A stretch of DNA of 64,000 nucleotides from an uncultured Planktomarina sp. Its GTDB lineage: Bacteria; Pseudomonadota; Alphaproteobacteria; Puniceispirillales; Marisalimonadaceae. Shown here piece by piece: positions 989 through 42,203 of the stretch. Made by a program: the position numbers and the translations under genes. The first letter of the stretch is position 1. Each line of letters starts with the position of its first letter. Below the pieces are notes generated by a model that was not told the origin of the DNA, made no database searches, and saw only the letters and a program-made list of their open reading frames with translations. The stretch is taken from assembly GCA_905181795.1 (NCBI GenBank), contig CAJIZD010000005.1, positions 7,721-71,720 on the forward strand, written 5' to 3'.

Positions 989-1516
989 ATGATTTCGACA
1001 CAAGATAGCCAAAACGCTAATATACCCTACCAATTACCAATGCCTCAAAATGCTTTGCCAGAAATAGTTATTCCTTCGGCAATTCCTGAGGACGATACTT
1101 TGTGGGTTAAACAAGCAGAAAACGTCTACTTCCGGCCACTTTGTCTAAACGCTTCTCAAGGCTATTGGATGAACCTATTGAAAGTTACAAAGTCAGGAGT
1201 ACTATCTCGTCATCGACATCCTAATGCGGTCCACGGATTTGTTTTAAAAGGTAGATGGCATTATTTAGAACATGATTGGGAAGCAAAAGAGGGAAGTTAT
1301 GTGTATGAACCTCCAGGTGAAACACATACTTTAGTGGTGCCTGAAGATGTCGAAGAAATGATTACTTTTTTTCAAGTTAACGGAATAATGTCCTATGTCG
1401 ATCCATGGGGTAAGTTACTCGGTTATGAAGATGTTTTTACTAAAATAGATTTATGTAGAAAGCATTTTATAAACATAGGTCTTGGTGAAAATTACGTAGA
1501 TCAATTCATACGTTAA
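989..1516 (+). CDS. 2,4'-dihydroxyacetophenone dioxygenase-like cupin
   Basis: Cupin motifs HRHPNAVHGFVLKGRWHYLEHDW and YEPPGETH, typical of the DAD family. Confidence 0.75.
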   Translation: MISTQDSQNANIPYQLPMPQNALPEIVIPSAIPEDDTLWVKQAENVYFRPLCLNASQGYWMNLLKVTKSGVLSRHRHPNAVHGFVLKGRWHYLEHDWEAKEGSYVYEPPGETHTLVVPEDVEEMITFFQVNGIMSYVDPWGKLLGYEDVFTKIDLCRKHFINIGLGENYVDQFIR

Positions 1517-1565
1517 TGATATGATAATAGTATAATTATAATCCAAAACATAATAGGGGATAAAG

Positions 1566-2693
1566 TTGTCTGATAAAAGTAGAGATTCTGAAATTCGTGT
1601 TAAAGTTAAAGATGCAATAGAGCTTATTACTGAAATATTTCAGGCTAAAGCGTGTAGCGATGACGAAGCTAAGACTATTGCGGAAAGACTTTGTGGCTCC
1701 AACTTAAAGGGTCATGATAGCCACGGGATAGTTAGAGTGCCTAGGTATGTAGAGTGGATGGAAAGAGACTGGGTTTTTCCAAATATTGAATCAGAATTAG
1801 TAATTGATGCAGGTGCATTAGCTTGCTTGGACGCCAAGCAAGGGTTTGGCCAAGTTGCGGGAGAACGAGCTGTTGACGAAGGAATTTCTAGAGCTAAGAA
1901 ACATGGTGTTTCTGTAGTAGGACTAAAAAATTCAGGTCACCTTGGTAGAATTGGAGACTGGGCAGAAAGAGCAGCGGACGCTGGGTTTGTATCTTTTCAT
2001 TTTGTAAATGTAAGAGGAAGTCTTTTGGTAGCTCCTTTTGGTGGAACAGATCGTCGTGGAAGCACTTCACCTTTAGCCATTGGAATTCCATCAAAGGGTA
2101 AAGAGCATATAATACTAGACATGGCTACCTCTACTGTTGCTGAAGGTAAAGTAATGGTTGCTCAAAAGGGAGGTAAGCCTCTACCTCAAGGAGCGTTAAT
2201 TGATAGCTCAGGAAACTTAACTATAAACCCAGAAGTAATGTATGGGAAAATAAGTGATGATGAAGTGCCTGACTCTGAAAATGGAAGTGGAGCTATAACA
2301 GCTTTTGGATTGCATAAAGGTTCAGGCATAAACTTTATGATGGAAATGCTTGGTGGAGCTTTAACTGGTTCAGGAGTATCTGCGGGAATAGATGATAAAG
2401 AAAAAAGGAAGTTTGCTAATGGAATGCTATCTATTTATATATCTGTAGAAAAGATGGTGGATCTTGATTATTTTTCAAAAGAAGTTCAGTCATATGCTGA
2501 TTTTGTAAGAGCCTCACCTGCATCTGATAAAAACGGAAAAGTTTTAATTCCAGGGGACAAAGAGATTATTACAAATAACGATAGATTAGCAAATGGGTTG
2601 CCTGTAGCACCTATAGTTTGGGAAAACATTAAACAAACTGCTCAAAAACTTGAAATCCCAAATCTTGAGAGATTTGAAAAAGCTATAGTTTAA
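1566..2693 (+). CDS. Ldh_2 family (malate/lactate/ureidoglycolate) dehydrogenase, YbiC-like
   Basis: GHDSHG, HLGRIGDWAE, LDMATS..AEGK and HKGSG motifs. Confidence 0.85.
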   Translation: MSDKSRDSEIRVKVKDAIELITEIFQAKACSDDEAKTIAERLCGSNLKGHDSHGIVRVPRYVEWMERDWVFPNIESELVIDAGALACLDAKQGFGQVAGERAVDEGISRAKKHGVSVVGLKNSGHLGRIGDWAERAADAGFVSFHFVNVRGSLLVAPFGGTDRRGSTSPLAIGIPSKGKEHIILDMATSTVAEGKVMVAQKGGKPLPQGALIDSSGNLTINPEVMYGKISDDEVPDSENGSGAITAFGLHKGSGINFMMEMLGGALTGSGVSAGIDDKEKRKFANGMLSIYISVEKMVDLDYFSKEVQSYADFVRASPASDKNGKVLIPGDKEIITNNDRLANGLPVAPIVWENIKQTAQKLEIPNLERFEKAIV

Positions 2694-2754
2694 TTTTCTT
2701 TACTAGGTTTAGTTAGATATCATAACGTTTTATTTGGCTATTCTAGTTAGGTGA

Positions 2755-4173
2755 ATGTTGATGCATCCTGAAAACACAAATTTCATTTACGTTAATCGTG
2801 AGATGCGAACTTTATCTAATATAGACTATGATATTACTTTGCTGGATTGGCTAAGAACAAACCTGAAATTAAAGGGAACCAAGGAAGGTTGCGCTGAAGG
2901 TGATTGTGGAGCATGCTCAGTTCTAGTTCATGATGGATCTAATTCTGAGGTAAGACCAATTAATTCTTGTTTAGTCAGAGTAGGTCAGGTTGTTGGAAAA
3001 GGGGTTATTACTGTTGAAGGTATAGGTAATGAAAAAAAACCTCATCCTCTGCAAACTTCTTTCATTAAAGAAAATGCATCACAATGTGGATATTGTACTC
3101 CTGGATTTATAATCTCTGGGATTTCATTATTAAATTCAAACAAAGATGTTGATGAAAATTCAATTAACGATGCTGTTTCAGGTAATTTATGTAGATGTAC
3201 AGGTTATTCTCCAATAGTAAAGGCGCTAAAATCTGTTGGTAATAATCATGAAGAAATAAAGCCTATACAATTCGTAGAACAAAATAATGATGTCCAATTA
3301 GGCCTTGTTTCCTATCATAATCCTATCAATTTAGATGAATTATTAAATTTAACAAATAAACCTAACTTTAGATATTTAGCTGGTGGTACAGATTTAAATT
3401 TGCAAAGACCTATAATTAATGAAGACCAAAACACTATTATCAACTTAAGCAATATAAAAGAATTAAAAAACATAGAAGTTCAGAATAATAAACTTCTTTT
3501 AGGTAGTGCTGTAACTATAGAAAATTTCTTAGTTACAATTAAGGATAGAATACCAGAATTAATCGAACTTCTGCAAAGATTTGGTTCACCACAAATACGT
3601 AATCAAGGTACTATTGGAGGTAATTTATGTACATCCAGTCCAATTGGAGATATAGCTCCTGTCTTTTTGGCTTTGAATGCAAAGTTAAATATTTTTGGAA
3701 GTAACGGAAGAAAAAAAGTAAATTTAAATGAATTTTACACAGGTTATAGAAAAAATATCTTAACTAAAGACGAGATTGTAAGTTCAATTGAAGTGCCTTT
3801 ACCAAAAAAGGATTACAATCTCTTTTGTTGGAAGTTATCAAAAAGATATGACCAAGATATTTCTACAATCTCTCTTACTGTTTATATCAAAATTAGAGAT
3901 CAAATTATCGATGACATCCATCTTGCAGCAGGAGGTATTGCTGAAACTCCAAAATATCTAGATAACCTTTGTAAAGATATGATAGGACAAAAACTAGATA
4001 AATCAATTTCGTTGGCTATCAATAATATTAAAAATTATATAAAGCCTATATCAGATATAAGAGGAACTGCAGATTATAGAATTGAGTCCTTTAGGGGGTT
4101 ATTTAGAAGGCTAGAAAAATGTTTGGTTGATGGTGTAAAGACAATGTCAATTATGGATTATAATAATGAATAA
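2755..4173 (+). CDS. xdhA: xanthine dehydrogenase small subunit (2Fe-2S/FAD)
   Basis: GTKEGCAEGDCGAC, SQCGYCTPG, GNLCRCTGY, AGGTDL and KLSKRYDQDIS motifs. Overlaps xdhB. Confidence 0.95.
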   Translation: MLMHPENTNFIYVNREMRTLSNIDYDITLLDWLRTNLKLKGTKEGCAEGDCGACSVLVHDGSNSEVRPINSCLVRVGQVVGKGVITVEGIGNEKKPHPLQTSFIKENASQCGYCTPGFIISGISLLNSNKDVDENSINDAVSGNLCRCTGYSPIVKALKSVGNNHEEIKPIQFVEQNNDVQLGLVSYHNPINLDELLNLTNKPNFRYLAGGTDLNLQRPIINEDQNTIINLSNIKELKNIEVQNNKLLLGSAVTIENFLVTIKDRIPELIELLQRFGSPQIRNQGTIGGNLCTSSPIGDIAPVFLALNAKLNIFGSNGRKKVNLNEFYTGYRKNILTKDEIVSSIEVPLPKKDYNLFCWKLSKRYDQDISTISLTVYIKIRDQIIDDIHLAAGGIAETPKYLDNLCKDMIGQKLDKSISLAINNIKNYIKPISDIRGTADYRIESFRGLFRRLEKCLVDGVKTMSIMDYNNE

Positions 4174-6448
4174 AGTTGCTTTTCATGACTCTTCCATCAG
4201 GCATACTACTGGTCAAGCAATTTATATTGATGATATGCCAGACCAAGAAAATTTGTTACATGGTGGGCTTGTTCTTTCTAAGTGCGCTTATGGAAAAATC
4301 AAAAAATTAGATTATTCTAAATTAGACAAATTACCTTATTCTACAAAAATTATTACAGCAAAAGATATTCCTGGTGAAAATGAAATAGGTCCCATTAAAA
4401 ACGGAGAACCAATTTTGGCTGATGACGTAATAACATATTACGGTCAACCAATTGCAATAATCTTAGCCAAAACTCACCAAGAGGCAATATATGCGAGTAA
4501 TTTAGTAGAAGTTGAAATAGAATTTATTGGAGAACCAATACTTACACTCGATGACGCTTATTCTAAAAGCTCATTTTTAGATGAACCAATTATTTTAGAA
4601 AAGGGTTTGCTAGACAATGAAATGGACCGTTCTAAATTCAAAATATCTGATTGTTTTGAAATTGGTGGTCAAGACCATTTTTACCTTGAAACACATGTAG
4701 CGTTGACTTTCCCAAGTGAAAATAATGAGTATACAGTTTGGTCAAGTACACAACATCCAACAGAAGTACAACATGGAGTTGGAAAAGTTTTAAACATTCC
4801 ATCTGCCAAAATTGATAGTAAAGTTAGGAGATTAGGTGGTGGTTTTGGAGGCAAAGAAAGTCAGGCTACAATATTTGCGGCAATGTCTGCCTTATGTGCG
4901 TTTGTTACTCAACAGCCAGTAAAAATCCGTCTTAATAGGCATCATGACATGACGGCATCTGGAAAAAGACATAACTTTAAAATATATTTTACAGCCGGTT
5001 TTTCTAGCAAGGGAAAGATAAATGCTCTGGATTTAAGGTTATTAAGTAATGGTGGAAATGTTTTGGATCTCTCGGGTCCTGTTATGACAAGAGCTTTAAC
5101 CCATTTAGATAATTGTTATTTTATAAAATCAATAAAAGCTGTTGGTTATATCTGTAAGACTAATACAGTTTCAAATACTGCCTTCAGAGGATTTGGCGGT
5201 CCACAGGGTATGCTAGCAATTGAAAATATTATTTATTTTGTAGCTCAATTTTTAAAAAAGCCATTAGACGAAATTAGGGATATTAACTTTTATTCAAAAT
5301 CAAACGGTCTTACTACACCTTATGGTCAGGTTGTATCAAAACCAAGAATTGAAAGAGTTATAAAAGAGATATATGGATTTAGTGATTATCATAAAAGGGT
5401 AGAAACAGTAAAAGTTTTTAATTTAGATCAAGAGAAAAATAAATTACCCTTTAGAAAAGGGCTTGCCCTAATGCCTGCAAAATTTGGAATATCATTCAAT
5501 AAACCGTCATTTAATCAAGCAGGAGCTTTAGTTCATGTATATTCTGATGGATCAGTGAGATTAAATCACGGAGGCACAGAAATGGGTCAGGGGTTGTTTA
5601 TTAAAGTAGCCCAAGTTGTTGCAGAATGTTTCAAAATTCCTTTAGAACAAATACATATTACTTCTACTAATACTGCAGAGGTTCCAAATACTTCTGCAAC
5701 TGCAGCTTCATCTGGTTCAGATTTAAATGGAATGGCAGCTTGGGATGCTGCGTCTAAAATAAAAAATAGAATGATTAATCATGTCTCTCAATTATTTCAA
5801 AAACAAAAGTCAGAAATAGCTTTTGAAAATGGTAGAATAATAGCAGGTAATAAAAGTCTGTTATTTTCAGAATTAGCACACTCATGTTGGGAAAACAGAA
5901 TATCACTATCATCTACAGGCTTTTACAAAACCCCCAAAATACATTGGGATCAAGGTAAATTAAAAGGTCATCCTTATTTTTATTTTACTTGGGGTGCAGC
6001 CGTATCAGAAGCTTTAATAGATATTAATACAGGTGAAAGTAGAATACTTCAGGCAGATATTATTCAAGATTGTGGTAATTCTCTTAATGAAAGTATTGAT
6101 ATAGGTCAAATTGAAGGTGGTTTTATTCAAGGACTAGGGTGGTTAACATGTGAGGAACTTCATTTCTCTAAAGATGGAAAGTTATTAACTACGGGGCCTT
6201 CAACTTATAAGTTACCAGGTAGTAGAGATGCTCCTCCAAAGTTTAAAGTTAAATTACTTGAAAATGCTGATAATGATGAGAAAACTATTTTTAGATCTAA
6301 AGCTGTTGGAGAACCGCCTCTATTGTTAGCTATTTCACATTTTTTGGCTATTAAGGATGCTATTAAAGCAGCTAATCCATTATCAAGACCAGAAAAATTA
6401 AATTCACCTGCTACTCCCTCTGAGATTTTAAAGGTTATTAAGGCTTAA
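4166..6448 (+). CDS. xdhB: xanthine dehydrogenase molybdopterin-binding subunit
   Basis: QDHFYLE, GGGFGGKES, AFRGFGGPQG and SKAVGEPP active-site motifs. Confidence 0.95.
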   Translation: MNKVAFHDSSIRHTTGQAIYIDDMPDQENLLHGGLVLSKCAYGKIKKLDYSKLDKLPYSTKIITAKDIPGENEIGPIKNGEPILADDVITYYGQPIAIILAKTHQEAIYASNLVEVEIEFIGEPILTLDDAYSKSSFLDEPIILEKGLLDNEMDRSKFKISDCFEIGGQDHFYLETHVALTFPSENNEYTVWSSTQHPTEVQHGVGKVLNIPSAKIDSKVRRLGGGFGGKESQATIFAAMSALCAFVTQQPVKIRLNRHHDMTASGKRHNFKIYFTAGFSSKGKINALDLRLLSNGGNVLDLSGPVMTRALTHLDNCYFIKSIKAVGYICKTNTVSNTAFRGFGGPQGMLAIENIIYFVAQFLKKPLDEIRDINFYSKSNGLTTPYGQVVSKPRIERVIKEIYGFSDYHKRVETVKVFNLDQEKNKLPFRKGLALMPAKFGISFNKPSFNQAGALVHVYSDGSVRLNHGGTEMGQGLFIKVAQVVAECFKIPLEQIHITSTNTAEVPNTSATAASSGSDLNGMAAWDAASKIKNRMINHVSQLFQKQKSEIAFENGRIIAGNKSLLFSELAHSCWENRISLSSTGFYKTPKIHWDQGKLKGHPYFYFTWGAAVSEALIDINTGESRILQADIIQDCGNSLNESIDIGQIEGGFIQGLGWLTCEELHFSKDGKLLTTGPSTYKLPGSRDAPPKFKVKLLENADNDEKTIFRSKAVGEPPLLLAISHFLAIKDAIKAANPLSRPEKLNSPATPSEILKVIKA

Positions 6449-6529
6449 CAAGTTAAATAACTTTAATTTGTTTTTATCTATATATTGTGATTTGGTAATT
6501 ATGTTTAACAACATTTAGGGGAGGTAACT

Positions 6530-7858
6530 ATGAGTGCCTTAGAAAACATTTCACAAGAAGACTTAAAAAATCCTGATTATGTTCCACCTTTACAGGTTGG
6601 TCTAATTCTTGGATTACAACATGTTCTAGCAATGTTTGTTAGTAACGTAACACCTTCTATAATTATTGCAGGTGTTGCTGGTTTTGCCTTTGGAAGTGCT
6701 GACACAGTATTTTTAATACAAATGTCTATGTTATTCGCTGGAATTGCTACTTTAATGCAAACAATTGGTTTTGGTCCAGTAGGGGCTAGGCTACCGGTTA
6801 TGCAAGGTACTAGTTTTGCTTTTGTGCCAGTCATGATTGGAGCTGCTAAAATGGGTATGGGAACGCTTTTCGGTGGAATAGTCATTGGAGGTTTGTTTCA
6901 TGCTTTTATGGGATTATTCATAGGTAAAATTCGTCATTGGTTCCCTCCATTAGTTTCTGGAATTATTATTTTAGCAATTGGTATATATTTGATTCCTGTT
7001 GGGATTCAGTATGCTGCTGGTGGTGCTGGTGATTTTAATATGTCAAAACCGACTTGGGGAGGTTTGGGCAATTGGAGCCTTGCAATAATTGTTATATTAG
7101 TATCTTTTGGATTAAAATTTTGGACAAAAGGAATTATTTCAAGCTCATCAGTATTATTAGGAATGATTGTGGCTTATGTTATTGCTATTTTTATGGGAGA
7201 CGTAAACTTTTCTGGTGTAAGTAAAGCTGCATGGTTTGCCTTACCAGAGCCATTTAAATATGGTTTTGATATTAACTTAACTGTGATAATAGCTATGTGT
7301 CTTATGTCTATTGTTAGTGCAATTGAAACAGTTGGAGATATCTCAGGTATAGCCAAAGGTGGAGCCAATCGAGAAGCTACGGATAAAGAGCTTCAGGGTG
7401 GAACCTATGCAGATGGAATAGGTACTGCAATTGCTGGAATTTTTGGTGGCTTGCCAAATACGAGTTTTAGCCAAAACGTTGGTCTGATTTCTATGACTGG
7501 CGTAATGAGCAGGTCTGTTGTTACTATAGCAGCTATTTTTTTAATACTTTGTGGTCTCGTTCCTAAAATAGGCGCACTAGTTTCTTCTATGCCGATAGCC
7601 GTGCTAGGAGGAGGAGTTATTGTCATGTTTGGTATGGTTGCATCTGCAGGTATAAACATGCTTAGTAGTGTAAATTGGAATAGAAGAAATATGATGATAT
7701 TTGCTATTTCTTTATCTATAGGTTTTGGTTTACAAAAAGTTCCTGCTTCTGTTCAAGGATTAGGAGGGGATCTTCAAATGCTGATGACATCTGGTCTATT
7801 GCCGGCTGCTTTCTTAGCTGTTTTGTTAAATATTATTTTACCAGAAGAAGATAAATAA
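6530..7858 (+). CDS. NCS2/NAT-family xanthine/uric acid permease
   Basis: LQHVLAMF and NAT signature SFSQNVGLISMTGVMSR. Strong SD (GGGGAGG). Confidence 0.92.
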   Translation: MSALENISQEDLKNPDYVPPLQVGLILGLQHVLAMFVSNVTPSIIIAGVAGFAFGSADTVFLIQMSMLFAGIATLMQTIGFGPVGARLPVMQGTSFAFVPVMIGAAKMGMGTLFGGIVIGGLFHAFMGLFIGKIRHWFPPLVSGIIILAIGIYLIPVGIQYAAGGAGDFNMSKPTWGGLGNWSLAIIVILVSFGLKFWTKGIISSSSVLLGMIVAYVIAIFMGDVNFSGVSKAAWFALPEPFKYGFDINLTVIIAMCLMSIVSAIETVGDISGIAKGGANREATDKELQGGTYADGIGTAIAGIFGGLPNTSFSQNVGLISMTGVMSRSVVTIAAIFLILCGLVPKIGALVSSMPIAVLGGGVIVMFGMVASAGINMLSSVNWNRRNMMIFAISLSIGFGLQKVPASVQGLGGDLQMLMTSGLLPAAFLAVLLNIILPEEDK

Positions 7859-7888
7859 TAATTTTTAAAATTATACTAATACTGTTAC

Positions 7889-7924
7889 ATTACACCGCTA
7901 AACTAAAAGCGGTGTAATTTTTTT
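7889..7924 (+). terminator. intrinsic terminator-like hairpin after the permease
   Basis: 11-bp stem ATTACACCGCT/AGCGGTGTAAT followed by a T run. Confidence 0.65.
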
Positions 7925-7925
7925 A

Positions 7926-9278
7926 ATGTCTAATATTCTAATAAAAAATGCAAAAATTATTGCAACGATGGATGACAATCAAAATGAAATTGTTAATCAA
8001 TCTATTTACTGTGAAAATGGAAAAATTATTGAAATTGGTCAATGTGAAAACGCCAATTATGACACCAGGAGCGCAATAGATGCGTCTGAAATGGTTGTAA
8101 TACCAGGGTTGATTAATACACATCATCATTTATTTCAAAATTTAACTCGTTGCTATACAAATGCTCAAAATGAATCATTATTTGGTTGGTTAACAAGTTT
8201 ATATCCAATTTGGAATAAAATAATCCCGTCTGATATCTATATTTCATCACTAATTGGTTTGTCAGAAATGGTAATGAGTGGATGTACAACTTCTAGTGAT
8301 CATCTATATCTTTTTCCTAATGGTTCAAAACTTGAAGATCAAATTGAAGCGGCTAAACTTGTTGGTTGCAGGTTTCATGCAACCAGAGGTTCAATGAGTA
8401 TAGGAGTTAGTAAGGGAGGTTTGCCACCTGACACTTTAGTAGAAGAAGAAAACTTTATATTAAAGGATTGTCAAAGAGTTATTGAAACGTTTCATGATGA
8501 TGCTGATTTATCCATGTTAAAGATAGCTTTAGCACCATGCTCACCATTTAGTGTAAGTCAAAATTTAATGAAAGAAACAGCAATTTTAGCTAGAGACTTT
8601 TCTGTAGGTATGCATACCCATTTGGCAGAAAATAAAGAAGACATTATTTATACTGAGGAAAATTTTGGTATGCGGCCCGGTCAGTATATTGAAGAATTAG
8701 GATGGTTAGGTAATGATGTTTGGCATGCTCATTGTGTTCAATTAGATGAAAATGAAGTAAGTTTATTTGCAAAAACAGGTACGGGAATAGCTCATTGTCC
8801 TTGTTCAAATATGCGTTTAGCAAGTGGTATTGCTCCTTTGAGAAATTGGCTTGATGCAGGCGTTAATGTTGGATTAGGTGTTGATGGATCAAGTTCTAAT
8901 GATAGTGGACATTTATTAAGTGAAGCTCGTCAAGCTATGCTCTTACAAAGAGTTAATCTAGGAGCAGACAAATTTTCAGCTCGAGAAGCACTATATACTG
9001 CGACAAGAGGTGGAGCTAAAGTTCTTAACAGAAACGACATAGGACAAATTGCCGTTGGTAAGGCTGCAGATTTTGCCGTTTATGATCTTAATCAAATTTC
9101 ATTGTCTGGAACTTGGAGTGATCCATTGGCTGGTTTAGTGTTTTGTTCACCTATGCATACAGCTTACACAATATGTAATGGGAGAGTGATTTCTGAGTCA
9201 GGTAATATGAGTAACTTTGATCTTGGTGTTTCACTTGATGAACACAAATCTGCGTCAAAGAGATTGCTAGATTTATAA
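7926..9278 (+). CDS. 8-oxoguanine deaminase (amidohydrolase family)
   Basis: INTHHHLFQNLTR, SSDHLYLFP, RFHATRGSMS, APCSPFSV, HCPCSNMRLASG and GVDGSSSND motifs, in a purine-catabolism context. Confidence 0.85.
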   Translation: MSNILIKNAKIIATMDDNQNEIVNQSIYCENGKIIEIGQCENANYDTRSAIDASEMVVIPGLINTHHHLFQNLTRCYTNAQNESLFGWLTSLYPIWNKIIPSDIYISSLIGLSEMVMSGCTTSSDHLYLFPNGSKLEDQIEAAKLVGCRFHATRGSMSIGVSKGGLPPDTLVEEENFILKDCQRVIETFHDDADLSMLKIALAPCSPFSVSQNLMKETAILARDFSVGMHTHLAENKEDIIYTEENFGMRPGQYIEELGWLGNDVWHAHCVQLDENEVSLFAKTGTGIAHCPCSNMRLASGIAPLRNWLDAGVNVGLGVDGSSSNDSGHLLSEARQAMLLQRVNLGADKFSAREALYTATRGGAKVLNRNDIGQIAVGKAADFAVYDLNQISLSGTWSDPLAGLVFCSPMHTAYTICNGRVISESGNMSNFDLGVSLDEHKSASKRLLDL

Positions 9279-9281
9279 ATA

Positions 9282-9797
9282 TTAAAAGATTAAATGTCTT
9301 ACTTCATTTTCTTTGAAATGATATTCTATTAAATTAACAGAAGAATTTTCATTTTTTTTAATTCTATCAACAATCCAAAAATCTTGTTTTTCTCTAACTA
9401 ACAAAGGGTGATGCCAAACATTCCTATTGTAAGTTATGCCAACGTCACCTTTTATGTGAAAACACCTTATAGTATCTAAATCTGGCATATTATTTTTGTC
9501 CTTGGACACAACTATTAACCAATCTATATTTTGAATAGGTAAGAAGCTTTGAGAAGCTATAGGGTGTTTTTCCATTATTTTTATTTCAATAGGTAAATTT
9601 CTTGGGGACCCTGAAAATATTGAAATTGCTGGAACTCCACCTTCATTGTTCAATTCTAAATCTGAAATATTATGATGACGAATTGTGGTACCTTGATTTA
9701 TAGAAATTTTTTCAGAAGTTGACTCTTTATTTATTACATGTCCAAATTCACTGAAGTTATCTAAGTCTATATTTTCAATTTCAATTTTATTTATCAT
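9282..9797 (-). CDS. allA: ureidoglycolate lyase
   Basis: INQGTT.RH, MEKHP..SQSFLP and YNRNVWHHPL motifs. Downstream of alc. Confidence 0.9.
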   Translation of the reverse strand: MINKIEIENIDLDNFSEFGHVINKESTSEKISINQGTTIRHHNISDLELNNEGGVPAISIFSGSPRNLPIEIKIMEKHPIASQSFLPIQNIDWLIVVSKDKNNMPDLDTIRCFHIKGDVGITYNRNVWHHPLLVREKQDFWIVDRIKKNENSSVNLIEYHFKENEVRHLIF

Positions 9798-10791
9798 CTA
9801 ACTTTTTTCCAAATATTCTAAGTCTAGAAACACCACCATCTGGGTAGATATTTAATCTAATGTGTGTGGCCTCAGCTTTTGAATTTGAATTAATTTCATA
9901 CTCATGGATATTGTCGGCAGTTAACTTGGTTTCATCTAGTATAACATCCCAATTTTCTGAACCTTGAATAAGGTCTTTTGTTGTTATGTTCTTATCAATA
10001 GATATTGCTTGAATTGATGCTCGGTCAGGATAGTTTCCTTTAAAATGAGCTGTATCAATTTCAATTTTTTCAATGTTACCTTTATGTGCTAATTTAATAA
10101 TGATCCAGTCATTACCTGGCTCACGTCGTCTTCTAGTTTCCCAGCCATCACCCATAGTCTGTCCTCTTCCTTCAGAAAGAAGTGCAGAGACATCTCCGTA
10201 ATGAGCATTGTTATAAGCTAAAATAGAGCCACCTAGTTTTAACGAAGATATTTCTATTATTTCTTCATTATTAAACTCATCCCAATTATATTTTACCTCT
10301 CCAAACAATCTAATACGTGCAACGCCGCCGTCAGGAAATATTTGTAACCTAACGAAATTAAATTTTTCTTTTAAATTTAATTCAAAATTATTCTTACAAT
10401 CCCCAACTAGGTTAGTTTTAGCTATTAAAGATTTCCAATTAGAATCTTTATTCGGTTCAGTCTCGCTATATATTCCTTCTAAAGAAAAAAAAGGAGGAAA
10501 GTTTCCAGTAAAATAGCTCGTGTCTATCTCTATTTTAGATATAATGCCTGCTGAACCAAGCTTTAAAATTGCCCAATCATTTCCACCATCTCTTCGTCTT
10601 TTGCTTTCCCATCCATCCATCCATTTACCATGATTATCATATTTATCTTCGATAAAAATAGGATCTTTATCGTTTAACATTCTTGTTACTTCACCAAAAA
10701 AATCATCAGAAAAAGCCAATATTTTGGTACCCATTTTAGGTGAAGCTAGATTAACTAAACCTTGCATTGAATTATTTGTAGTCATGATCAT
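9787..10791 (-). CDS. alc: allantoicase
   Basis: Two allantoicase repeats (DGWESKRRR / DGWETRRRR, DT..F.GN.P, PDGGV.R). Confidence 0.95.
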   Translation of the reverse strand: MIMTTNNSMQGLVNLASPKMGTKILAFSDDFFGEVTRMLNDKDPIFIEDKYDNHGKWMDGWESKRRRDGGNDWAILKLGSAGIISKIEIDTSYFTGNFPPFFSLEGIYSETEPNKDSNWKSLIAKTNLVGDCKNNFELNLKEKFNFVRLQIFPDGGVARIRLFGEVKYNWDEFNNEEIIEISSLKLGGSILAYNNAHYGDVSALLSEGRGQTMGDGWETRRRREPGNDWIIIKLAHKGNIEKIEIDTAHFKGNYPDRASIQAISIDKNITTKDLIQGSENWDVILDETKLTADNIHEYEINSNSKAEATHIRLNIYPDGGVSRLRIFGKKLDDK

Positions 10792-10804
10792 TAATCCTAA
10801 TTAT

Positions 10805-12211
10805 TTAGAGTAAACAAAAGTCTCTTGAAACATATCTACCAAGATTTTTTTGTGTAATAAATTTATTATGTTCATAAATTTTTTGACCTCTTAACCAAGT
10901 CTGTACAGGCCAGCCCTTAATTTCTAAGTTTTCATAAGGTGTATAGTCAGATCCATGATGTAGGTCAGCTTGTTTTATTTTTTTTACCTTATTTGGATCC
11001 CAAATAGTTAAATCTGCATCACTTCCGATTTTAATAGAACCTTTTTGAGGGTATAATCCATACATTTTAGCAGGATTTGTAGAGGTTAATTCTACAAATC
11101 TCTCAATTGAAATTCTGTTTTTGCTTACTCCTTCTGAAAATAAAATTGGAAGTCTGGTTTCTACACCAGGTATCCCATTAGGAACCCATTTGAAGGAAGT
11201 CCTTGCTCCTGGTCGATCTTTTCCTTTTTTATCTTTAAACTTAAAAGGGCAGTGATCTGAGGAAAAAATATCAAACGTTCCGTCTATAATTCCTTCCCAA
11301 ATTGCTTCTTGACTTTCTCTATCTCTTGGAGGAGGAGAGCATACATACTTAGCCCCCTCAAAATCCATATTAAGTCCTTTCATATCATCTTCAGTTAGGC
11401 AAATGTATTGAGGACATGTTTCTGAAAAAACCTTTATACCATTTTCTTTAGCCCATTTTATCTGCGATAAGGCTTCATTGCCTGATACATGAACTATTAC
11501 AATGGGTATATCAACAATTTGTGCATGGCTAATTGCTCTATGAGTAGCTTCTCTTTCTACAATTTGAGGTCTTGATAATCCATGATAGTAAGGGGCTAGT
11601 TTACCTTCATCTTCTAATTTTTTTGTTAAATATCTTATAGCATCATAACCTTCTGCATGAACCATAACCAAGGTTTTTTCTTTTTTTGCAACTTCAAAAA
11701 CTTTTAATAGTTCTTCATCATTAAGCACTAGATCATCGTATGTCATGAAAACTTTGAAAGAAGTATATCCGTCTCTAGCTAATGCAGGTAGTTCTTGGCC
11801 TAACACTTGCGCTGATGGATCACTAATTATCAAATGAAAAGAAGTGTCCACAAATAAATTACCCTTAGCTTTTGCATGATAATTTTTTACACATTCTCTC
11901 AATGATTGTCCTTTTTCTTGCATAGCAAAAGGTAATACTGTTGTAGAACCTCCAGCAGCTGCAGATTTAGTAGCACTTTGAAAATTATCAGCCATTTCTA
12001 CATCAGGTCCAGAGGGTTGATCGATGTGAACATGTGCGTCTATTCCACCCGGTAGTATAATTAGATCGGTAGCATCTTCTATGATTTTGGCATTGCTATT
12101 CAATTGGCCTAATGCACAGATTTTTCCCTCAAAGATGCCAATATCACAATTTTCTATACCTTTTTCAGTAACCACTCTACCATTAGTGAGAATAACATCC
12201 AGATTTTCCAT
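10805..12211 (-). CDS. hydA: dihydropyrimidinase/hydantoinase-type cyclic amidohydrolase
   Basis: GGIDAHVH, SFKVFMTY (carboxylated Lys), VHAE, SSDHCPF and NGIPGVETR motifs. Confidence 0.85.
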   Translation of the reverse strand: MENLDVILTNGRVVTEKGIENCDIGIFEGKICALGQLNSNAKIIEDATDLIILPGGIDAHVHIDQPSGPDVEMADNFQSATKSAAAGGSTTVLPFAMQEKGQSLRECVKNYHAKAKGNLFVDTSFHLIISDPSAQVLGQELPALARDGYTSFKVFMTYDDLVLNDEELLKVFEVAKKEKTLVMVHAEGYDAIRYLTKKLEDEGKLAPYYHGLSRPQIVEREATHRAISHAQIVDIPIVIVHVSGNEALSQIKWAKENGIKVFSETCPQYICLTEDDMKGLNMDFEGAKYVCSPPPRDRESQEAIWEGIIDGTFDIFSSDHCPFKFKDKKGKDRPGARTSFKWVPNGIPGVETRLPILFSEGVSKNRISIERFVELTSTNPAKMYGLYPQKGSIKIGSDADLTIWDPNKVKKIKQADLHHGSDYTPYENLEIKGWPVQTWLRGQKIYEHNKFITQKNLGRYVSRDFCLL

Positions 12212-40088: not shown

Positions 40089-40343
40089 TTAAGCGGCTTC
40101 TTTGTCTTCTACTTTATTGTCTTGCTTAACAGTCTTTGTTAGACCTAAGCTACCTGCTGGGAAGTCTACAACGTCAGTTACGTTAAAGAAGTCACCATTT
40201 AATACTTGCTGTCTTGTGAAACCAATATCAGCTAATGTACGGTCATCTAAGCTTATTAAAGCTTGTCTAGTTCTTGATACTGCAATCTTGTCAAAAACAG
40301 TTGAGATAAATTGATTGGCTCTTGCTAAAAATGTATTTTCCAT
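40089..40343 (-). CDS. DUF1127 (YjiS-like) small protein
   Basis: SRTRQALISLDDRTLADIGFTR signature. Confidence 0.88.
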   Translation of the reverse strand: MENTFLARANQFISTVFDKIAVSRTRQALISLDDRTLADIGFTRQQVLNGDFFNVTDVVDFPAGSLGLTKTVKQDNKVEDKEAA

Positions 40344-40658
40344 CGTCTTTTCACTTTTCTTTATAAAATTAAGAAGGATTATCCCTTCGTTGTTAATTAT
40401 ATACGAAATAAAAATGACAAAGAGAATATAGCAAAATGGAAAATGATTATTTCCAAAATAGAATGATTAAACATATTTAAAACATAATTACGACTAATTA
40501 GGAAACAATGTGGCTATGATTAGGAAGGAATAGTTTAGAAGTGAATGATATTAGCAATATTGATAATATTAAAATATATCCTTAATACATTTTATGTACT
40601 TGATTAATATTTGTCGATATTTAATATTTTAAATATATATTTTTAAGGAGTATGTGAT

Positions 40659-41117
40659 TTGTCAAAAGCTTTTTTGTTGTGGTGGATACAGGTAGTTACT
40701 GTGTCATTTGCTGCAATCTTAATTTTTACTTATGGATGGTTTGAAAAGCTATATGATGCTGATCAAACTAAGATTAGTTTTATAATAATAGTAATTTTCA
40801 TTGGAACATCAATATCAACAGGTTTCTTAAGTTTTAAGTCAAGCGTTGAATATAATAAATTAAGTAATTATATATGGTTTGCTTCAGAAACAATGGTTAC
40901 TCTTGGTTTAATTGGAACAGTTGCAGGGTTTTTGTTAATGTTAAGTTCTGCTTTTGATAACTTAGATGTTAGTAATGTAGAAAATGTCCAAAAAGTAATA
41001 TCTAATATGGCGTTGGGAATGAGTACGGCTTTATGTACTACTCTTGCAGGTTTAGTTGGTAGTGTATTAACTAAAATTCAAATGGTTATTCTAGAGAATA
41101 ATTCTAATTATGAGTGA
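40659..41117 (+). CDS. MotA/TolQ/ExbB proton-channel family protein (short)
   Basis: TLGLIGTVAG and GMSTALCTTLAGL channel-helix motifs. SD AAGGAG before the TTG start. Confidence 0.85.
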   Translation: MSKAFLLWWIQVVTVSFAAILIFTYGWFEKLYDADQTKISFIIIVIFIGTSISTGFLSFKSSVEYNKLSNYIWFASETMVTLGLIGTVAGFLLMLSSAFDNLDVSNVENVQKVISNMALGMSTALCTTLAGLVGSVLTKIQMVILENNSNYE

Positions 41118-41730
41118 TCCTAGATACAGATCTTCTTTTGGATTTATAGATCTATTATTCAATATGCTGATAGGTTTTGTATTCTTGTTTATGTTAGCTT
41201 TTTTGTTAATAAATCCAGTAGCTAAAAAAGAAACAATAAAGCCTAAAGCAGAGTACTTTATAGAATTGGAGTGGGATGGTGAAAAGCCATATGATCTAGA
41301 TGTTTGGGTTAAAGACAATATGGGCCATATAGTAAGTTTCAGAAGGCCGGATGACGCATTAATCCATTTAGAAAGAGATGATTTAGGTACTGTAAATGAT
41401 ACTTATGTGGATCAAAATGGTAAAACAGTTTACTTAAAAGAAAATAGAGAGGTTGTCGCTATAAGAACACCAGAGGCTAGATCATATTTAGTTACAATTC
41501 ATTTTTATAATGCAAGAAAATTTCCAGCACCCCTTACGCATGCTACAGTAAGGTTATTAAAAGTTAACCCTTATAAAGAAGAATACACAAAAAAATTATT
41601 TTTTAGTGAAGAAGGCCAAGAGCTCCCAGCATTTAAATTTAGAGTTGATTATAATGGTATTGTACACGTTGATCCAACGAACGAGCTTATAATTGATGGT
41701 GAAGTAATAAGAAAAAAGAGTGGTGTGTAA
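41110..41730 (+). CDS. single-pass membrane protein with an ExbD/MotB-like Asp helix and a YfaP/DUF2135-like periplasmic domain
   Basis: N-terminal FIDLLFNMLIGF TM, followed by a W....DLDVWV.D..G..V, LERDDLG, Y.V.IHFY pattern. Overlaps the upstream gene. Confidence 0.65.
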   Translation: MSDPRYRSSFGFIDLLFNMLIGFVFLFMLAFLLINPVAKKETIKPKAEYFIELEWDGEKPYDLDVWVKDNMGHIVSFRRPDDALIHLERDDLGTVNDTYVDQNGKTVYLKENREVVAIRTPEARSYLVTIHFYNARKFPAPLTHATVRLLKVNPYKEEYTKKLFFSEEGQELPAFKFRVDYNGIVHVDPTNELIIDGEVIRKKSGV

Positions 41731-42203
41731 TGTTAGATTTTTCAATCAGCACAGGACAATTAATGTTGATTTGGTCGTTTGCGGGGGCTATTTGTTGTTT
41801 GCCATTTTTTACAAAGAATGTTTGGCAAAGGTTTTTTACAGTACCTATTATATTTATTGCGATATGGCTTAGTTTTTATACAAATCACGAGTTTATAGGC
41901 CGTCCTATGTATGACAGGCCTCCAGAACAATTTGTGTATGAACATCACGCAGTCATTTATGATAAAGGTGAGAGATTAATTGTACTTTGGGCTGTAAAAG
42001 ACGGTATTAATAAGCTTTTTAAATTCCCTCATACAGAACAAAATGAAGAAGCTTTAGATCAAGCTAAAAGAAATGCTGAAAGATCAGGTGTCCCTCAAAT
42101 GGGTGAAATTGTTAAAGAAGATCCAGTTGAAAAAAGATCAAGAAATAACGAATTTACTTTGAAAACTTATCGGTTTCCATTTCAGAAGATGATGCCTAAG
42201 TAA
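41730..42203 (+). CDS. hypothetical membrane protein (two N-terminal TMs plus soluble domain)
   Basis: Coupled to the previous gene by a TAATG overlap. No family recognised. Confidence 0.7.
   Translation: MLDFSISTGQLMLIWSFAGAICCLPFFTKNVWQRFFTVPIIFIAIWLSFYTNHEFIGRPMYDRPPEQFVYEHHAVIYDKGERLIVLWAVKDGINKLFKFPHTEQNEEALDQAKRNAERSGVPQMGEIVKEDPVEKRSRNNEFTLKTYRFPFQKMMPK

Follow-up and report, generated by a model that had tools for sequence, protein, structure and literature searches.

We analysed a 64,000-nucleotide stretch of DNA from an uncultured marine SAR116 bacterium (deposited as Planktomarina sp.; assembly GCA_905181795.1, contig CAJIZD010000005.1, positions 7,721 to 71,720 of the forward strand), referred to below as the window, in which three open reading frames (ORFs), here called A, B and C, occupy positions 40659-42203 of the plus strand. 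An initial annotation of this DNA had read them as three overlapping genes for a self-contained ion-driven motor, beginning with a channel subunit of 152 amino acids (aa), and the ORFs proved to be exactly as it described; its interpretation was supported in part. A and B share 8 nt (ATGAGTGA) and B and C share 1 nt (TAATG), and all of the sequence motifs that had been quoted (LGLIGTVAG, GMSTALCTT, FIDLLF, DLDVWV and LERDDLG) were found. Gene A cannot start earlier than its TTG codon because an in-frame TGA lies directly upstream. The genes are laid out as follows.

40645-40650, plus strand: Shine-Dalgarno sequence AAGGAG, 8 nt 5' of the gene A TTG, read from the sequence.
40659-41117, plus strand: gene A, TTG start, 152 aa, minimal MotA/ExbB/TolQ-family channel subunit.
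41110-41730, plus strand: gene B, 206 aa, bitopic protein with one transmembrane (TM) segment and a predicted periplasmic beta-sandwich.
41730-42203, plus strand: gene C, 157 aa, 2-TM hairpin with a small periplasmic domain.

The assignment of protein A to the MotA/TolQ/ExbB channel subunits was upheld by a match to the Pfam family MotA_ExbB (PF01618) above its gathering score (32.8 bits against 22.9; E 6.7e-8, residues 76-148), and phage homologues of A match the same family. The protein has four hydrophobic TM segments and essentially no cytoplasmic domain. Sixteen positions were invariant in an alignment of 40 homologues (W8, D35, T37, G83, G86, T87, G90, F91, G120, M121, A124, L125, T127, L129, G131 and Q141). 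The two pore-lining helices combine a conserved polar Thr with conserved Gly residues (T87 with G83, G86 and G90; T127 with G120 and G131). T87 and T127 are presumably the equivalents of ExbB T148 and T181.

40884-41102, plus strand: conserved MotA_ExbB core of A (residues 76-148), consisting of its final two TM helices, in which T87 and T127 are invariant; delimited by the Pfam extent and the alignment.

Protein B has an acidic residue within its TM segment. In an alignment of 56 diverse sequences (the window B and 55 relatives) the conservation check suggested by the initial annotation was run on this aspartate, D14, and it was invariant in all 56. It belongs to the motif F-I-D-L-L-F-N, which lies where the single helix meets the cytoplasm, and its position is like that of D25 in ExbD, D23 in TolR and D32 in MotB. 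An AlphaFold2 model (predicted local distance difference test score, pLDDT, 82.7) placed an N-in helix at residues 9-34 and an all-beta domain after it, and the INPVAKK linker between helix and periplasmic domain, about 13 residues in length, is conserved.

41149-41151, plus strand: D14 codon; this TM aspartate is invariant and lies about 5 residues inside the cytoplasmic end of the helix.
41245-41700, plus strand: periplasmic TerD-like beta-sandwich of B (residues 46-197), a predicted fold with an invariant acidic cluster.

The periplasmic domain of B was expected to be neither of the ExbD nor of the OmpA-like peptidoglycan-binding kind, and this was confirmed: the alpha/beta domain of ExbD was not found, the predicted domain being an all-beta sandwich, and there was no OmpA-like (PF00691) or MotB-type match in B or 56 relatives. 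A second part of the same claim, that B continues into a YfaP/DUF2135 domain, found marginal support only. The DUF2135 model (PF09906, 48 positions) matched only two of the 56 relatives (best E 1.5e-5, residues ~122-165), in a segment other than that of the DLD and ERDDLG motifs, and it did not match the window B at all. The predicted fold resembled that of TerD proteins. The VIA fold search returned TerD-family structures 3ibz, 2qng and 2qz7 with Z scores of 11.8, 10.7 and 10.5 (132-136 residues aligned at a root-mean-square deviation, rmsd, of 3.6-4.0; for the best match, 136 residues at 3.6); the fourth row, 9a6r_B (Z 10.1), is an integrative model that was not identified as TerD-family, and the row after it (Z 6.3) was clearly another fold. 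Foldseek with the same model gave a TerD match at E 1.3e-4. The invariant positions of the domain across the 56 sequences are D62, D64, D90, D91, G93, N96, D97, N112 and E114, and the acidic cluster among them makes the sandwich a candidate Ca2+ site. TerD proteins are soluble, cytoplasmic and encoded in ter operons. B would share with these Ca2+-binding proteins the predicted fold of residues 46-197 and clustered invariant acids that include a DxD motif, but its domain is periplasmic, is fused to a stator-type TM helix and has no sequence homology to TerD detectable by Pfam or hhalign. The family is large, with 2054 representatives at 50% identity. Fusions of B to A or C were absent from the 267 family members inspected, in which the long variants of B differed by disordered acidic tails only.

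The third gene had been described as coding for a 2-TM protein, which was confirmed, and it proved to be a constant partner of the other two. The alignment of C (48 homologues) shows a 2-TM hairpin at residues 2-56 with a loop that is short and rich in K and R, from which an N-out/C-out topology follows. An LG(Y/W/R)P motif, a basic linker and, at the C-terminus, a YxFP...PK motif are likewise common to the homologues. In the AlphaFold2 model (pLDDT 82.9) the roughly 100 periplasmic residues form a domain of the order b1-b2-b3-alpha-b4-b5. C belongs to no Pfam family and has no TonB_C, TolA or hydrolase domain. A wide VIA search with the C model was dominated by helical-hairpin matches to residues 1-57, and Foldseek found the OB-fold (oligonucleotide/oligosaccharide-binding) B subunits of AB5 toxins at E 0.056-0.1 only; the strand order may resemble that of an OB fold, a likeness that is not established. 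A complex prediction for the periplasmic parts of B (residues 36-206) and C (residues 52-157) scored 0.00, 0.48 and 0.00, which speaks neither for nor against binding.

The organisation of the trio invites comparison with the Ton and Tol systems. ExbBD and TolQR are inner-membrane motors of 5:2 stoichiometry that are driven by the proton motive force (PMF) and work with a third, anchored partner (TonB or TolA). As in TolQ-TolR-TolA and ExbB-ExbD-TonB, A has a MotA_ExbB-family channel core; B, like ExbD and TolR, crosses the membrane once with its N-terminus inside and carries an Asp near the cytoplasmic end within an ID..L motif; and the operon encodes a third membrane-anchored periplasmic partner, C, with all of the output expected on the periplasmic side. 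This three-part logic of channel, Asp protein and anchored partner raises the idea that the trio supplies energy for a process at the outer membrane (nutrient import or tethering, for example), with C as an analogue of TonB or TolA and the trio as an auxiliary metabolic gene (AMG) set of phages. PhoH and other AMG-like genes lie near the trio in some viral loci, and in one bacterial context a TonB-dependent receptor gene lies about 5 kb away. There are, however, several differences from the Ton and Tol systems. A has four TM segments, no cytoplasmic domain and 152 aa, compared with ~230-245 aa for TolQ and ExbB. In B the alpha/beta domain of ExbD and TolR is replaced by a TerD-like sandwich, which is attached through a very short linker. 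C has two TM segments and only ~100 periplasmic residues, with neither the Pro-rich or long helical spacer needed to span to the outer membrane nor any TonB_C or TolA match; with a linker of ~13 residues in B, neither protein plausibly reaches the outer membrane. The trio is also not accompanied by genes for outer-membrane partners (a receptor, tolB and pal were not consistently linked in the loci read), its carriers are mainly phages, and SAR116 genomes keep a separate canonical pair of MotA_ExbB and ExbD genes elsewhere. Of the accounts that we weighed, this one seems the least probable.

The flagellar stators offer a second comparison. A has the four-TM topology of MotA and PomA, B has an Asp-bearing single TM as in MotB and PomB, and the sole, marginal, matches of the A profile to sequences in the PDB were to MotA. 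In contrast to these stators, A lacks the torque-generating cytoplasmic loop, B lacks both the plug and the OmpA-like peptidoglycan-binding domain, there are no linked flagellar genes and a third gene, C, is present. More generally, comparisons of A with MotA, TolQ and ZorA models gave weak matches that were confined to the TM core. The neighbourhood check agreed with the description of the cassette as self-contained: no tonB, TonB-dependent receptor, tol/pal, flagellar or zorC-E gene flanks it, and it is not embedded in a Ton, Tol, flagellar or Zorya locus.

The initial annotation had mentioned similar gene pairs in marine phages, and this was strongly borne out. A scan of IMG/VR identified at least 442 viral contigs with the trio, of which 80 were fetched and read. 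A adjoined B in 78 of the 79 assessable viral loci, and a profile search placed C next to B in 74 of the 80, with three more nearby. The trio was also present in 25 cultured Rhizobium phage isolates of three genome types (~68, 154-158 and 171 kb), where its proteins are annotated solely as hypothetical; likewise, every neighbour of the family in the ESM Atlas was a cluster of 'hypothetical protein' entries, of viral or Pseudomonadota origin. Metagenome contigs with relatives of B showed the same A-B-C order among phage genes (DnaB, DUF3310, RNase H, PhoH, a PD-(D/E)XK nuclease, ClpP and a metallophosphatase). The three genes form a single conserved unit.

In five of the 80 viral loci, C was fused at its C-terminus to a T4-type lysozyme (PF00959, Phage_lysozyme; E 1e-47 to 1e-50).

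L138:2768-3661, L152:2645-3553, L156:2454-3356, L158:2382-3278 and L172:1604-2509, viral loci: C-lysozyme fusions, each with a full PF00959 domain.

These natural fusions place the C-terminus of C in the periplasm, and they point towards a link between the module and peptidoglycan. They also bring into play a different account, in which A and B would form a gated ion leak, acting as a pinholin-like depolariser or as a sensor of the PMF, and C would be a tethered wall effector or endolysin anchor, so that phages would time or execute lysis with the trio and the bacterial copies would have been tamed for regulated wall turnover. Unplugged stator units do leak protons, as in MotB plug mutants, the lysozyme domain in the five fusions is complete, and, like those of lysis cassettes, the proteins are small, lie in the membrane and come from translationally coupled genes. 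Most C proteins, however, contain no hydrolase, and in the phage loci that were read the trio is found among genes for DnaB, RNase H, PhoH, exonuclease, endonuclease VII and topoisomerase with no recognisable lysis cassette. A lethal depolariser would also be hard to square with near-universal, constitutive carriage on chromosomes under extreme purifying selection, as described below. We consider a role in lysis or PMF control to be unlikely.

On bacterial chromosomes the trio was present, with C beside B, in every locus examined. In a class-wide sample of the Alphaproteobacteria it was found in 54 of 401 genomes (~13%), representing 43 of 307 genera. On an 820-kb alphaproteobacterial contig the trio stands alone, flanked by ABC transporter and trehalose genes, and in a marine alphaproteobacterial lineage it adjoins the suf operon. 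Bacterial A proteins from outside SAR116 are longer (173-290 aa), and some alphaproteobacterial chromosomes combine an A of 250-290 aa with tandem copies of C (A-B-C-C'; L194:6556-7532 and L201:6581-7549). The 'orphan' status given to the cassette at the outset was mistaken: the trio belongs to a large phage and alphaproteobacterial family. In SAR116 itself, the locus csp-cupin-eamA-DUF1127-A-B-C-llm-qor-trpG-trpE is syntenic in ~54 low-GC genomes from two genus-level clades, and a match was found in 28 of the 36 genomes of the genus, including six of the seven that are at least 90% complete. Within the genus, B proteins are 94-100% identical, compared with 67-85% for the products of neighbouring genes. 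At non-synonymous sites B diverges by 0.011-0.038 (pN) and trpE by 0.10-0.12, with saturation at the synonymous sites of all the genes; the low pN together with this saturation indicates long-term purifying selection and not recent transfer. In low-GC SAR116 the cassette is a core locus that is passed on vertically and evolves very slowly. In four studies, contigs of marine metatranscriptomes cover the operon, and one contig spans A, B and C; this suggests that the cassette is transcribed, although against this it must be set that assembled contigs carry no strand information and may derive from DNA carry-over.

That the trio is near-universal in the genus and extremely conserved speaks against the phage-sensing and superinfection-exclusion roles that the initial annotation had entertained, and for an envelope function. 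Under an anti-phage account the cassette would be a domesticated exclusion module, or an inner-membrane sensor or blocker of incoming phage comparable to Zorya. MotAB-type motors can have a role in defence, as ZorAB demonstrates, and the trio shares with ZorAB a MotAB-type core employed outside motility; the best PADLOC matches of A were to ZorA models (E 1e-6), and a phage origin of the trio would agree with where exclusion genes usually come from. Yet the ZorA models cover only residues ~30-150 of A, that is the TM core, with 19-26 bits compared with cut-offs of 190-700 in PADLOC and NCBIfam, and A ends at residue 152 with no long C-terminal ZorA tail and with ZorC, ZorD and ZorE absent nearby. 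The locus lies outside defence islands and is conserved like a core gene, syntenic and near-universal in the genus, and the non-synonymous rate of B is 5-9 times below that of trpE, the opposite of what is typical for defence genes. An anti-phage function thus appears distinctly improbable.

The phylogeny of B suggests how the cassette may have come to SAR116. In a careful maximum-likelihood tree the SAR116 sequences formed one clade (100/100) inside otherwise all-viral clades (97/90 and 98/93), and the other chromosomal alphaproteobacterial sequences formed a separate clade (100/96). Grouping the two bacterial clades cost 35.5 log-likelihood units and was rejected by the approximately unbiased (AU) test (p 0.019), but this result counts for less in that the tree is unrooted and the tested group was picked after an earlier tree had been seen. 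The five loci with C-lysozyme fusions fell in a viral subclade (seven rows in the careful tree, 11 in a quick tree) just outside the clade that holds SAR116. The A protein of SAR116 is short and phage-like in length, and since B nests among viral lineages as well, the sequences suggest that an ancestor of the low-GC SAR116 genera took over a phage cassette long ago and fixed it in its chromosome, the direction of the transfer being inferred. Separately, five B sequences from metagenome-assembled genomes (MAGs) labelled Methylophilaceae, Legionellales, Chloroflexota, Flavobacteriales and Hellea (L073, L074, L075, L095 and L098) fell inside viral clades in the quick tree; the contigs concerned probably represent phage or prophage DNA that was binned into these MAGs.

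We favour, with modest confidence, the reading that the three proteins make up a miniature machine powered by an ion-motive force and akin to MotAB, ExbBD and TolQR, whose soluble portions all lie in the periplasm and which works on the cell envelope through C as its output partner. In such a machine A would form a ring, a pentamer by analogy, in which the last two helices with their invariant Thr and Gly residues line the ion path, and two B helices would place their invariant Asp at the centre of the ring. Protonation and deprotonation of D14 (or binding of Na+) would then move A relative to B. As A has no cytoplasmic domain, the output is expected on the periplasmic side, where it may pass through the TerD-like, probably Ca2+-binding sandwich of B on its ~13-residue linker, and through C. 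The hairpin of C would dock on the ring like the anchor of TonB or TolA, with the small periplasmic domain as the effector, so that C would take the part of TonB or TolA at short range; a short-range action is proposed because B and C are both too short to extend as far as the outer membrane. The data establish the family of A, the invariance of D14, the periplasmic topology and the lysozyme fusions; the ion specificity, the Ca2+ binding and the target of the trio are all inferred. A housekeeping role in the envelope or peptidoglycan fits better than a role in an arms race, because the locus is vertically inherited, apparently expressed and under very strong purifying selection.

Several results weigh against this reading, or limit how far it can be taken. 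A is very divergent by sequence: its profile reached solved MotA chains only marginally (6ykm at E 0.1 and 8gqy at E 0.8), so that A is to be regarded as a remote branch of the family. B had no Pfam or NCBIfam match at E <= 1, the ExbD, MotB and OmpA profiles included, and its profile had no match to PDB sequences at E <= 10; its resemblance to ExbD and TolR appears limited to the short TM motif. The Pfam TerD family (PF02342) matched none of the 56 members of the B family, and hhalign of the B domain against a shallow alignment of 19 proteobacterial TerD genes gave a probability of 0.2%. Because sequence methods do not detect the relationship, the TerD-likeness of B is one of predicted fold only, and Ca2+ binding by B is correspondingly conjectural. 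The soluble domain of C had no significant structural match in VIA or Foldseek. The 5:2 stoichiometry and the rotation of A and B are drawn from family analogy only, and an action over a long range like that of the Ton and Tol systems is unlikely, the periplasmic parts being too short to span to the outer membrane.

The surroundings of the cassette are unremarkable. On the upstream side lie csp, a cupin gene, an EamA transporter gene and a DUF1127 gene, and downstream, on the opposite strand, are genes for a luciferase-like monooxygenase and a quinone oxidoreductase and trpG/trpE; both flanks consist of ordinary metabolic genes. The GC content is flat at ~0.31 across the region and equal to that of the flanks. 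A local prophage origin was considered and rejected, with no integrase, tRNA or phage gene nearby, GC equal to the flanks and synteny across genera. A search of the window against Rfam gave no match, and a scan for sigma-70 promoters and terminators gave a promoter signal not above chance (11 sites, 12 expected). The following elements were found 5' of gene A.

40438-40454, strand not applicable: perfect palindrome GGAAAATGATTATTTCC of 17 bp, located between gene A and the divergently oriented DUF1127 gene.
39977-39946, minus strand: strong hairpin terminator 3' of the DUF1127 gene.

The palindrome is kept in both SAR116 genus-level clades, with the remainder of the spacer variable, and it occurs as a single copy in the 1.07-Mb assembly (chance expectation 0.13 per window); further GGAAA half-sites lie close to it. 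It is a candidate operator of the DUF1127 promoter or of the gene A promoter. In metatranscriptome X10, word depth was ~1,400-12,000 over the DUF1127 gene region (40200-40420, the minus-strand gene with its upstream part) and ~6 on the cassette, suggesting very high expression of the small DUF1127 gene or of an associated RNA. Many single-cell and metagenome contigs of relatives start 70-150 nt 5' of gene A (loci L021-L051), where the AT-rich, length-variable spacer at ~40470-40640 evidently breaks assemblies.

Complete relatives carry a second MotA_ExbB-family gene (an ORF of ~258-265 aa, E ~1e-29) about 30 kb from the cassette. Each of these genomes has a single ExbD gene (PF02472), which lies beside a MotA_ExbB paralogue other than the one ~30 kb from the cassette. 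The second MotA_ExbB-family entries in the relatives are at these positions.

G006:C5:384790-385146: second MotA_ExbB-family entry.
G016:C9:43535-43891: second MotA_ExbB-family entry.
G025:C6:30086-30442: second MotA_ExbB-family entry.
G033:C53:54438-54797: second MotA_ExbB-family entry.

No description of the trio was found in the full-text literature or in family libraries. The 'MotA' named in papers on pelagimyophages and a methylophage is the unrelated T4 transcription factor, and a 2025 paper on the phylogeny of MotAB does not cover the phage forms. We rate the trio as a new, phage-borne, minimal family within the superfamily of 5:2 motors, which are known from flagella, the Ton and Tol systems, gliding and Zorya. 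A wider proposal, which we put forward more tentatively than the miniature machine itself, is that this 5:2-type family is carried and spread by phages and is the smallest of the Mot/Exb/Tol superfamily, that it would link the membrane potential both to a Ca2+-binding beta-sandwich in the periplasm and to a 2-TM effector acting on the cell wall, and that at least two bacterial lineages independently made it a core envelope machine.

If the interpretation as a motor is true, a minimal motor that does without a cytoplasmic domain would be the smallest working form of such machines and an attractive structural target. Its role can be tested by experiment, because cultured Rhizobium phages carry the trio. 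In SAR116, which are abundant bacterioplankton, the cassette is conserved more tightly than the genes of tryptophan biosynthesis and so probably has an important envelope function. The trio is encoded by hundreds of phages as well as by abundant marine and soil Alphaproteobacteria, which would imply that phages regularly equip the host envelope with a device of their own that is driven by the membrane potential, a process that to our knowledge nobody has studied.

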